A stretch of DNA of 64,000 nucleotides. Origin: Escherichia coli. GTDB lineage: Bacteria; Pseudomonadota; Gammaproteobacteria; Enterobacterales; Enterobacteriaceae. Where the stretch lies: the NCBI RefSeq assembly GCF_003790525.1, contig NZ_CP033635.1, one strand, 5' to 3'. The stretch's first letter is position 1. Each line of letters opens with the position of its first letter. Shown here in pieces: positions 53,730-55,404 of this stretch. A model generated the notes under the pieces. The model was not told the origin of the DNA. It did no database searches and saw only the letters and a program-made list of their open reading frames with translations. A program made the position numbers and the translations under genes.

Positions 53730-53960
53730 ATGCTGAAGAATCTGGCTAAACTGGATCAAACAGAAATGGATAAAGTGAATGTCGATTTGGCGGCGGCAGG
53801 GGTTGCATTTAAAGAACGCTACAATATGCCGGTGATCGCTGAAGCGGTTGAACGTGAACAGCCTGAACATTTGCGCAGCTGGTTTCGCGAGCGGCTTATC
53901 GCCCACCGTTTGGCTTCGGTCAATCTGTCACGTTTACTTTACGAGCCCAAACTTAAATAA
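53730..53960 (+). CDS. holE: DNA polymerase III theta subunit HolE, 76 aa
   Basis: ORF 53643..53960; ATG at 53730 after GAGGAG gives 76 aa ([35 protein letters not shown]...). Confidence 0.92.
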
Positions 53961-54061
53961 AACTTATACATAGTTACACTTTCTTACATAACGCCTGCTA
54001 AATTATGAGTATTTTCTAAACCGCACCCATAATTTGCAGTCATTTTGAAAAGGAAGTCATT

Positions 54062-54718
54062 ATGTCGTTCTGGAAAGTTGCAGCAGCGCAATATGAGCCT
54101 CGTAAAACCTCACTCACCGAACAGGTAGCTCATCATCTGGAGTTTGTGAGGGCCGCCGCCAGGCAACAATGTCAGCTGTTAGTTTTTCCATCGCTTTCTT
54201 TACTGGGGTGTGATTATTCGCGACGTGCCCTTCCTGCCCCCCCCGATCTCTCGCTATTAGACCCGCTTTGTTATGCTGCAACGACCTGGCGAATGACTAT
54301 CATTGCCGGCCTTCCCGTTGAATATAACGATCGCTTTATTCGTGGAATTGCGGTGTTCGCACCGTGGCGAAAAACGCCAGGGATCTACCATCAGAGTTAT
54401 GGTGCATGTCTGGGCCGTCGTTCCAGAACCATCACGGTGGTCGATGAACAACCGGAAGGTATGGATATGGACCCGACCTGTTCACTGTTTACGACAGGGC
54501 AATGTCTGGGAGAACCCGACCTGCTGGCGTCGGCCCGTCGCTTACAATTTTTTTCACATCAGTACTCGATTGCTGTGCTGATGGCAAATGCCCGTGGTAA
54601 CAGTGCACTATGGGATGAACATGGTCGTCTCATCGTTCGCGCCGATCGTGGTTCATTATTGTTAGTCGGTCAGCGTTCATCACAGGGTTGGCAAGGCGAT
54701 ATCATTCCATTACGCTAG
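54062..54718 (+). CDS. yobB: carbon-nitrogen hydrolase (nitrilase superfamily) protein YobB, 218 aa
   Basis: Full-length ORF; conserved position between holE and exoX. Confidence 0.9.
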   Translation: MSFWKVAAAQYEPRKTSLTEQVAHHLEFVRAAARQQCQLLVFPSLSLLGCDYSRRALPAPPDLSLLDPLCYAATTWRMTIIAGLPVEYNDRFIRGIAVFAPWRKTPGIYHQSYGACLGRRSRTITVVDEQPEGMDMDPTCSLFTTGQCLGEPDLLASARRLQFFSHQYSIAVLMANARGNSALWDEHGRLIVRADRGSLLLVGQRSSQGWQGDIIPLR

Positions 54719-54741
54719 GCTTTTTCGGCCTGGAGCATGCC

Positions 54742-55404
54742 ATGTTGCGCATTATCGATACAGAAACCTGCGGTTTGCAGGGAGGGATCGTTGAGATTGC
54801 CTCTGTTGATGTCATTGACGGAAAAATCGTCAACCCCATGAGCCACCTGGTGCGCCCCGATCGTCCTATTAGTCCACAAGCGATGGCGATTCATCGCATC
54901 ACCGAAGCCATGGTCGCCGATAAACCGTGGATTGAAGATGTGATCCCGCACTATTACGGTAGTGAATGGTATGTCGCGCACAACGCCAGCTTTGACCGCC
55001 GCGTACTGCCTGAGATGCCCGGTGAGTGGATTTGCACTATGAAACTGGCCCGTCGTTTGTGGCCAGGGATCAAGTATAGCAATATGGCGTTATATAAAAC
55101 ACGGAAGCTCAATGTACAGACGCCGCCGGGCCTGCATCATCACCGCGCGTTGTATGACTGTTATATCACCGCTGCGTTGCTTATCGATATTATGAACACC
55201 TCCGGCTGGACGGCAGAACAGATGGCCGATATCACCGGACGTCCGTCGTTGATGACGACCTTCACCTTTGGCAAATACCGTGGCAAAGCGGTTTCCGACG
55301 TTGCCGAACGCGATCCGGGCTATCTGCGCTGGTTGTTTAATAACCTGGACAGCATGAGCCCGGAGCTGCGTTTAACACTGAAACATTATCTGGAAAATAC
55401 TTAA
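54742..55404 (+). CDS. exoX: exodeoxyribonuclease X (DnaQ-like 3'-5' exonuclease), 220 aa
   Basis: ORF 54688..55404; ATG at 54742 ([15 protein letters not shown]...) gives 220 aa; DEDDh Exo I motif DTET. Confidence 0.93.

Follow-up and report, generated by a model that had tools for sequence, protein, structure and literature searches.

The holE, yobB and exoX genes of Escherichia coli lie in a core-genome segment that, with a probability we put at roughly 85%, comprises two expression units that adjoin each other through common descent. Under this reading, holE would be a single gene expressed from the spacer that separates it from the divergent yobA, and yobB and exoX would form a two-gene operon with its own regulated, OmpR-repressed promoter in the 101-nt spacer downstream of holE. 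Some holE transcripts would probably enter yobB, where Rho would stop a share of them, and the exoX transcript would end Rho-dependently, antisense to ptrB. The HolE protein, theta, would function as the companion of epsilon within the Pol III core, ExoX would act on its own as a monomer, a 3'-5' exonuclease on DNA that contributes to mismatch repair and related repair, and no physical association of theta with ExoX would be required to account for the arrangement. Databases and the literature already cover these genes and the order in which they stand, as well as the yobB-exoX operon and its regulators. Were theta to bind ExoX, a poorly understood Pol III subunit would gain a new function and a repair exonuclease would be tied to the replisome proofreading module; the evidence points away from such binding. 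Almost no phenotype has been reported for the loss of theta.

The window, that is, the whole stretch of 64,000 nt analysed here (E. coli assembly GCF_003790525.1, contig NZ_CP033635.1), carries the three genes on its plus strand. [quoted passage not shown] Seventy-five of its 76 residues are those of K-12 theta, the sole change, P70L, falling in the flexible C-terminal tail, and from this 99% identity the theta of the window would be expected to bind the N-terminal domain of epsilon. The second gene, yobB (54062-54718), encodes a 218-aa protein of the nitrilase superfamily (CN_hydrolase, PF00795; 96.8 bits against a cut-off of 23.2, with the best stretch covering profile positions 1-111 of 256). 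The third, exoX (54742-55404), encodes the 220-aa exodeoxyribonuclease X, in which Pfam recognizes RNase_T (PF00929, 62.8 bits) and ExoX-like_C (PF20600, 50.1 bits) domains, both scoring well over their curated cut-offs, and which matches PDB 4FZX (E 2e-115). The DEDDh motifs can be read in its translation as Exo I DTET (residues 6-9, 54757-54768), Exo II HNASFD and Exo III HRALYD. On the left lies yobA (53217-53591, minus strand), which encodes a CopC domain and is the first gene of a yobA-copD-yebY group that, according to the ORF listing and the annotation, diverges from holE on the side opposite to yobB. On the right, ptrB (55401-57461, minus strand; oligopeptidase B) converges with exoX through a 4-nt overlap and is the constant right-hand neighbour of that gene.

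The yobB stop codon (54716-54718) and the exoX ATG at 54742 are separated by a plus-strand junction of 23 nt (54719-54741), in which a Shine-Dalgarno GGAG (54732-54735) stands six bases 5' of the ATG. Our initial annotation, made from the sequence alone, had proposed the identities and the common orientation of holE, yobB and exoX, and these are confirmed by the ORFs, Pfam, and the PGAP and K-12 annotations; the DTET motif and the 23-nt distance that it had reported were recovered by direct reading. The 330 bp by which it had placed holE upstream of yobB holds as a start-to-start distance (332) and not as the gap, which is really 101 nt (53961-54061).

The coordinates of the three genes agree with those that PGAP assigned in a genome of 99.9% identity and with loci b1842-b1844 of K-12. 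Several E. coli chromosomes match the segment at 100% identity, and of 5426 complete E. coli genomes, 5423 contain at least 80% of it, annotated with the same arrangement. K-12 holE (b1842), yobB (b1843) and exoX (b1844) are the same as in the window in gene content, order, strand and spacing and differ by point changes only, theta P70L among them; the aligned yobA-holE-yobB stretch is 99% identical to that of MG1655, with no indels. Given collinear annotations and an aligned part that is so nearly identical, published K-12 data can be placed on the window, for which an offset of 1871378 was applied to MG1655 coordinates. The stretch is the standard, known holE/yobB-exoX neighbourhood of E. 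coli.

The spacer between holE and yobB concentrates much of the regulatory evidence. Shimada et al. found by genomic SELEX that the RpoD holoenzyme binds this spacer in vitro and assigned the binding to a yobB-exoX operon (PMC3946193). The sigma-70 promoter that they called for this operon spans 53965-53992 on the plus strand of the window (TATACA at 53965-53970, 16 nt, CATAAC at 53987-53992), and both hexamers are identical in K-12; the choice of hexamers is a prediction of the SELEX authors (PMC3946193) and is unconserved in Salmonella and Citrobacter. A consensus promoter scan of the spacer returned no strong promoter. Overlying the promoter call is an OmpR-type tandem site, GTTACACTTTCTTACAT (53973-53989, plus strand), which agrees at 15 of 17 bases with GTTACATTTTGTTACAT, the repeat given by Seo et al., in whose ChIP-exo data yobB is an OmpR-repressed target (PMC5438342). 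This is the sole match to GTTACATTTTGTTACAT with no more than two mismatches in the 64-kb window (0.04 expected), it is identical in K-12, and no other block of the spacer is as well conserved over the range from Escherichia to Enterobacter and Kluyvera. In addition, the CpxR iModulon includes yobB and neither holE nor exoX (PMC7657598). Downstream of the OmpR-type site, an imperfect A+U-rich inverted repeat (53995-54039, plus strand) could form a weak hairpin, which is no canonical intrinsic terminator; the fold of 53940-54075 has an energy of -22.7 kcal/mol (z -1.95), and neither the terminator scan nor the fold revealed an intrinsic terminator 3' of holE.

Transcript-end data from MG1655 complement this picture. 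Among the Rho termination regions of Adams et al. (PMC7815308, Supplementary file 2), whose positions were transferred from MG1655, one falls inside yobB at 54317 on the plus strand (MG1655 1925695; Rho score 2.97, p 7e-7) and a second falls 3' of exoX at 55875 on the plus strand, antisense to ptrB (MG1655 1927253; score 6.3); the latter is probably where the exoX transcript ends. Coverage 3' of the Rho site in yobB is about 73% of that 5' of it (64 vs 88 reads in the untreated sample, with the column order as interpreted here), and the Term-seq list of the same study contains no plus-strand 3' end after holE (PMC7815308). The SMRT-Cappable-seq supplementary data do not mention holE, yobB or exoX. 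Taken together, the promoter, OmpR, CpxR and Rho data indicate a separately regulated yobB-exoX unit. As no intrinsic terminator follows holE, we infer that some read-through from this gene may occur, curbed by Rho within yobB. The initial annotation had named independent promoters as evidence that would speak against its proposed link, and for yobB-exoX such a promoter is largely borne out by the K-12 SELEX, OmpR and CpxR data, albeit with no intrinsic terminator after holE. As a separate observation on expression, holE and yobB share one fluoride (NaF)-repressed cluster, a weak hint toward read-through.

To place this arrangement in an evolutionary context, theta relatives were scanned in one genome per species, which yielded 446 loci; the closest 80, all from Enterobacteriaceae, were analysed. 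In every one of these 80 loci, exoX lies 3' of holE in the same orientation, within a collinear yebY-copD-yobA / holE...exoX / ptrB-yebE block, so that at the depth of Enterobacteriaceae the adjacency of holE and exoX amounts to conserved gene order. The interval between the two genes has nevertheless been remodelled repeatedly, and this is the principal comparative by-product of our analysis. It measures about 780-900 nt in 55 species, in which yobB is present; 422-541 nt, with yobB remnants or none detectable, in E. albertii, one other Escherichia and Cedecea colo; 78-164 nt in the Klebsiella oxytoca group, Raoultella, Franconibacter, Dryocola and others; 23-29 nt in three species; and 11 nt in 12 species (Kosakonia, Phytobacter and relatives). 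Partial yobB genes remain in E. albertii, and relics of the yobB 3' end (GGTTGGCAAG...ATTACGCT) persist in the spacers of Klebsiella, Raoultella, Enterobacter sp. BIGb0383 and Dryocola; these 3' relics imply that yobB is ancestral and was deleted several times, to differing extents.

In some of the genera that lack yobB, the result is a genuine-looking holE-exoX operon. At the Kosakonia junction, TAAtGGAGccaggcATG, exoX starts 11 nt past the holE stop, and the two Phytobacter species have an ATGA in which the start codon of exoX and the TGA stop of holE overlap, a classic sign of translational coupling. With exoX lying 11-29 nt after holE or overlapping its stop, the two genes are probably linked transcriptionally in these yobB-less genera, and a holE-exoX operon in Kosakonia, Phytobacter and relatives would be the natural reading of their sequences.

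Outside Enterobacteriaceae, where one genome was sampled per genus, the arrangement takes several forms. Erwinia has holE followed after 145 nt by exoX. In Serratia and Yersinia, an opposite-strand alpha/beta-hydrolase gene lies between holE and exoX, which are about 2 kb apart, and in Serratia a dksA-like gene is also found between them. Hafnia has holE, the opposite-strand hydrolase gene, and then a gene for a 253-aa CN-hydrolase and exoX, the latter two 28 nt apart. In Pectobacterium, holE adjoins ptrB and no exoX is found within 5 kb of holE, and in Moellerella and Xenorhabdus neither exoX nor ptrB lies within that distance. Across the Enterobacterales sampled, the constant neighbour of holE is the divergent side with ferritin and copC-copD-yebY, and exoX is accompanied by ptrB and, in genomes that have it, by yobB. 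We propose an order of evolutionary events that would account for these layouts. The older layout, kept in Hafnia, would have read yebY-copD-copC-ferritin (minus strand), holE (plus), alpha/beta hydrolase (minus), CN-hydrolase-exoX (plus) and ptrB (minus), and Yersinia and Serratia would represent this layout minus the CN-hydrolase gene. Loss of the opposite-strand hydrolase gene would have brought holE beside yobB-exoX in Enterobacteriaceae, and later independent losses of yobB would have set holE directly against exoX in some genera.

Three alternatives were weighed against this reading, and the first of them bears on transcription. Read-through from the holE promoter could supply meaningful exoX mRNA, in which case holE-yobB-exoX would be a substantial single transcription unit and the level of a repair exonuclease would follow that of a replisome subunit. 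We regard this as a serious possibility with somewhat less than even odds. The three genes share one orientation, uninterrupted by any gene on the other strand, there is neither a predicted intrinsic terminator nor a listed plus-strand Term-seq end after holE, most of the coverage persists past the Rho site in yobB, and both the shared NaF-repressed cluster and the placement of exoX 11-29 nt from holE in genera that have lost yobB are in its favour. Against it stand the binding of RNA polymerase in the spacer, assigned to yobB-exoX (PMC3946193), the OmpR site in that spacer together with the repression of yobB by OmpR (PMC5438342), the inclusion of yobB alone of the three genes in the CpxR iModulon (PMC7657598) and the Rho termination region within yobB (PMC7815308). 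Moreover, a spacer of 101 nt exceeds typical within-operon gaps, and the arrangement is unconserved past Enterobacteriaceae, being interrupted in Serratia, Yersinia and Hafnia and lacking exoX at the locus in Pectobacterium, Moellerella and Xenorhabdus.

A second alternative concerns YobB itself. The Glu-Lys-Cys catalytic triad of the nitrilase superfamily is not retained in the orthologue alignment: the catalytic Glu is missing, E. coli having FPS where homologues have FPE, and in this alignment of diverged sequences the segment bearing the Lys is missing and VVDEQ stands where the Cys would be, so that the Lys and Cys have apparently been lost as well. The Hafnia homologue differs in that it retains Glu, Lys and Cys, aligned to PEL, YQK and VCYD of the Nesterenkonia amidase 3HKX. 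It is conceivable that yobB and exoX are the meaningful pair, with YobB assisting ExoX, either as a partner without catalytic activity or by aiding its expression, and with holE as a bystander. [quoted passage not shown] We nonetheless consider such a pairing unlikely: yobB was deleted independently in several lineages that keep exoX, its product has diverged far more rapidly than ExoX (34-73% identity to the E. coli protein, compared with 73-100%), the catalytic triad is lost, and the Rho region inside yobB suggests weak translation.

The third alternative takes the adjacency to reflect a partnership, in which theta would bind or stabilize ExoX as well as epsilon, both being of the DnaQ fold. 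ExoX and epsilon do share the DEDDh fold, holE and exoX are adjacent throughout the Enterobacteriaceae loci and in Erwinia, and in about 15 species their junctions are operon-like or overlapping. The initial annotation had stated that no such link was known to be established, and this stands: a full-text search found, among the papers it covered, none combining exonuclease X with the theta subunit. In the affinity-purification clusters of Hu et al., HolE is grouped with DnaE, DnaX, HolC and HolD (PMC2672614, Table S7), the HolE-DnaX interaction is reciprocal, and ExoX is absent from those tables, an absence that, in one data set and for a 76-residue protein, counts as a weak negative. The genomic-context modules published in the same work in 2009 already group exoX, holE and yobB (PMC2672614, Table S9), and the neighbourhood signal is thus already known. 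ExoX purified alone is reported to be soluble, monomeric and active (PMC3942315); it was crystallised without a partner, and its identity to epsilon186 is just 28%.

Structure prediction was also applied to this question. An AlphaFold2 model of theta-(G4S)6-ExoX(1-170), for which the fused alignment held 26 rows paired by genome, reached a pLDDT of 77.9 and a pTM of 0.62, to be read beside a positive control that did not fold. In that control, theta-(G4S)6-epsilon186, epsilon remained unfolded (pLDDT 43, pTM 0.28), for which an alignment of too little depth (86-94% identity across the fused rows) is the probable reason. The confidence of theta in the ExoX fusion was the same as with the unfolded epsilon control, no inter-domain error map accompanied the model, and the fusion is not counted here as evidence.

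Mobile and diverged copies of theta provide a further comparison. Homologues of theta are encoded in 34 phage records and 4320 plasmid records, and in the two contexts examined, P1 and the leading region of an IncF plasmid, no DnaQ-type exonuclease gene lies beside the theta copy. Three longer contigs with diverged theta homologues (from an unknown taxon, a phage and an endosymbiont genome) carry no exoX near the theta gene, and a fourth homologue is on a 1.1-kb contig that is too short to judge. At the level of the locus, holE and exoX do not travel together: three genera have no exoX within 5 kb of holE, and the P1 and IncF copies have no such gene beside them. A theta-ExoX partnership is highly improbable in view of the clustering of HolE with Pol III subunits and without ExoX, the reported activity of ExoX as a lone monomer and its distance from epsilon186, the opposite-strand genes that split holE and exoX in Yersiniaceae and Hafniaceae, the retention of holE with no exoX close by in Pectobacterium, Moellerella and Xenorhabdus, and the P1 and IncF plasmid copies; we give as little credence to ExoX as a second client that theta binds or tunes in Enterobacteriaceae, from a translationally coupled operon where yobB has been lost. 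The link between holE and exoX that the initial annotation had implied finds little support in this genome, and what survives of it is possible read-through and the operon-like layout of yobB-less genera.

Set against known systems, the two expression units that we favour fall into place as follows. The theta of P1 (Hot) and that of IncF-type plasmids belong to the same Pfam family as HolE, and their genes differ from chromosomal holE in sitting among anti-restriction, SOS and addiction genes. The established epsilon-theta pair (DnaQ-HolE, PDB 2XY8; 2IDO with P1 HOT) provides a parallel, in that the theta of the window is a bona fide HolE and the DEDDh exonuclease fold is common to ExoX and epsilon; it differs in that dnaQ lies outside this locus and in that no association between theta and ExoX has been reported or was detected here. 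Lastly, Kosakonia and Phytobacter have the flanking block of E. coli and orthologues of its holE and exoX genes, but they lack yobB and display an operon-like holE-exoX layout that E. coli does not have, which makes them the natural place for testing the theta-ExoX idea.

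The spacer separating holE (53730-53960, plus strand), which encodes the theta subunit of Pol III, from yobB contains a tandem site of the OmpR type, GTTACACTTTCTTACAT, at 53973-53989 on the plus strand. This site is the sole match within the 64-kb window, where 0.04 would be expected, and a comparison of spacers revealed its conservation across genera. Its presence agrees with the published repression of yobB by OmpR (PMC5438342). Upstream of this locus, Rfam searches placed an overlapping small-RNA pair between pphA and yebY, namely SraC/RyeA at 51722-51866 on the plus strand (176 bits) and SdsR/RyeB at 51726-51825 on the minus strand (114 bits).

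Within holE itself, Term-seq data from MG1655 place a strong 3' end antisense to the gene at position 1925232, with a score of 42483 (Adams et al., PMC7815308), which corresponds to 53854 on the minus strand of the window; the fold around this end is unremarkable (z -1.17). Residue 70 of theta (codon 53937-53939) is Leu in this genome and Pro in K-12 and in more than 90% of the aligned homologues. This position falls within the tail formed by residues 70-76, which was left out as flexible in an NMR docking study.

Theta homologues were also detected on 4320 of the 72,556 records of a plasmid collection, most of them conjugative Klebsiella plasmids. In the one plasmid context examined (locus L094, NZ_CP030735.1), the theta gene adjoins an anti-restriction gene. 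A 98.7% identical holE is carried by NZ_CP090612.1, a 420-kb E. coli record labeled as a "plasmid". A record titled Chryseobacterium sp. 18061 (L072, CACSKA010000003.1) is probably mislabelled or contaminated, because its holE locus is typical of Enterobacteriaceae.

At the distal end of the locus, the convergent genes exoX and ptrB overlap by 4 nt (55401-55404), leaving no space for a terminator between them. A published Rho region downstream of exoX, at 55875 (Adams et al., PMC7815308), suggests that exoX transcripts extend about 470 nt into ptrB in antisense orientation. The two Phytobacter species each have an ATGA (L021:6228-6231 and L038:6228-6231) in which the start of exoX overlaps the stop codon of holE, an arrangement that makes the N-terminus of ExoX longer by five residues, MTAET or MSDET.

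Relics of the yobB 3' end persist in the spacers following holE in Klebsiella, Raoultella, Enterobacter sp. BIGb0383 and Dryocola (L040, L065, L025 and L048), and a truncated yobB is still present in E. albertii and Escherichia sp. MOD1 (L006 and L007). Judged from these sequences, the decay of yobB is a matter of independent events. The E. coli YobB (54062-54718) looks like a dead enzyme in the homologue alignment: of the nitrilase triad, it has Ser in place of the catalytic Glu (FPS, not FPE), and it apparently lacks both the Lys, through deletion of that segment, and the Cys. Even so, an open frame of 218 aa is kept in Escherichia, Salmonella and Citrobacter. The Hafnia homologue (L092:6730-7491), unlike E. 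coli YobB, retains all three residues, Glu, Lys and Cys.
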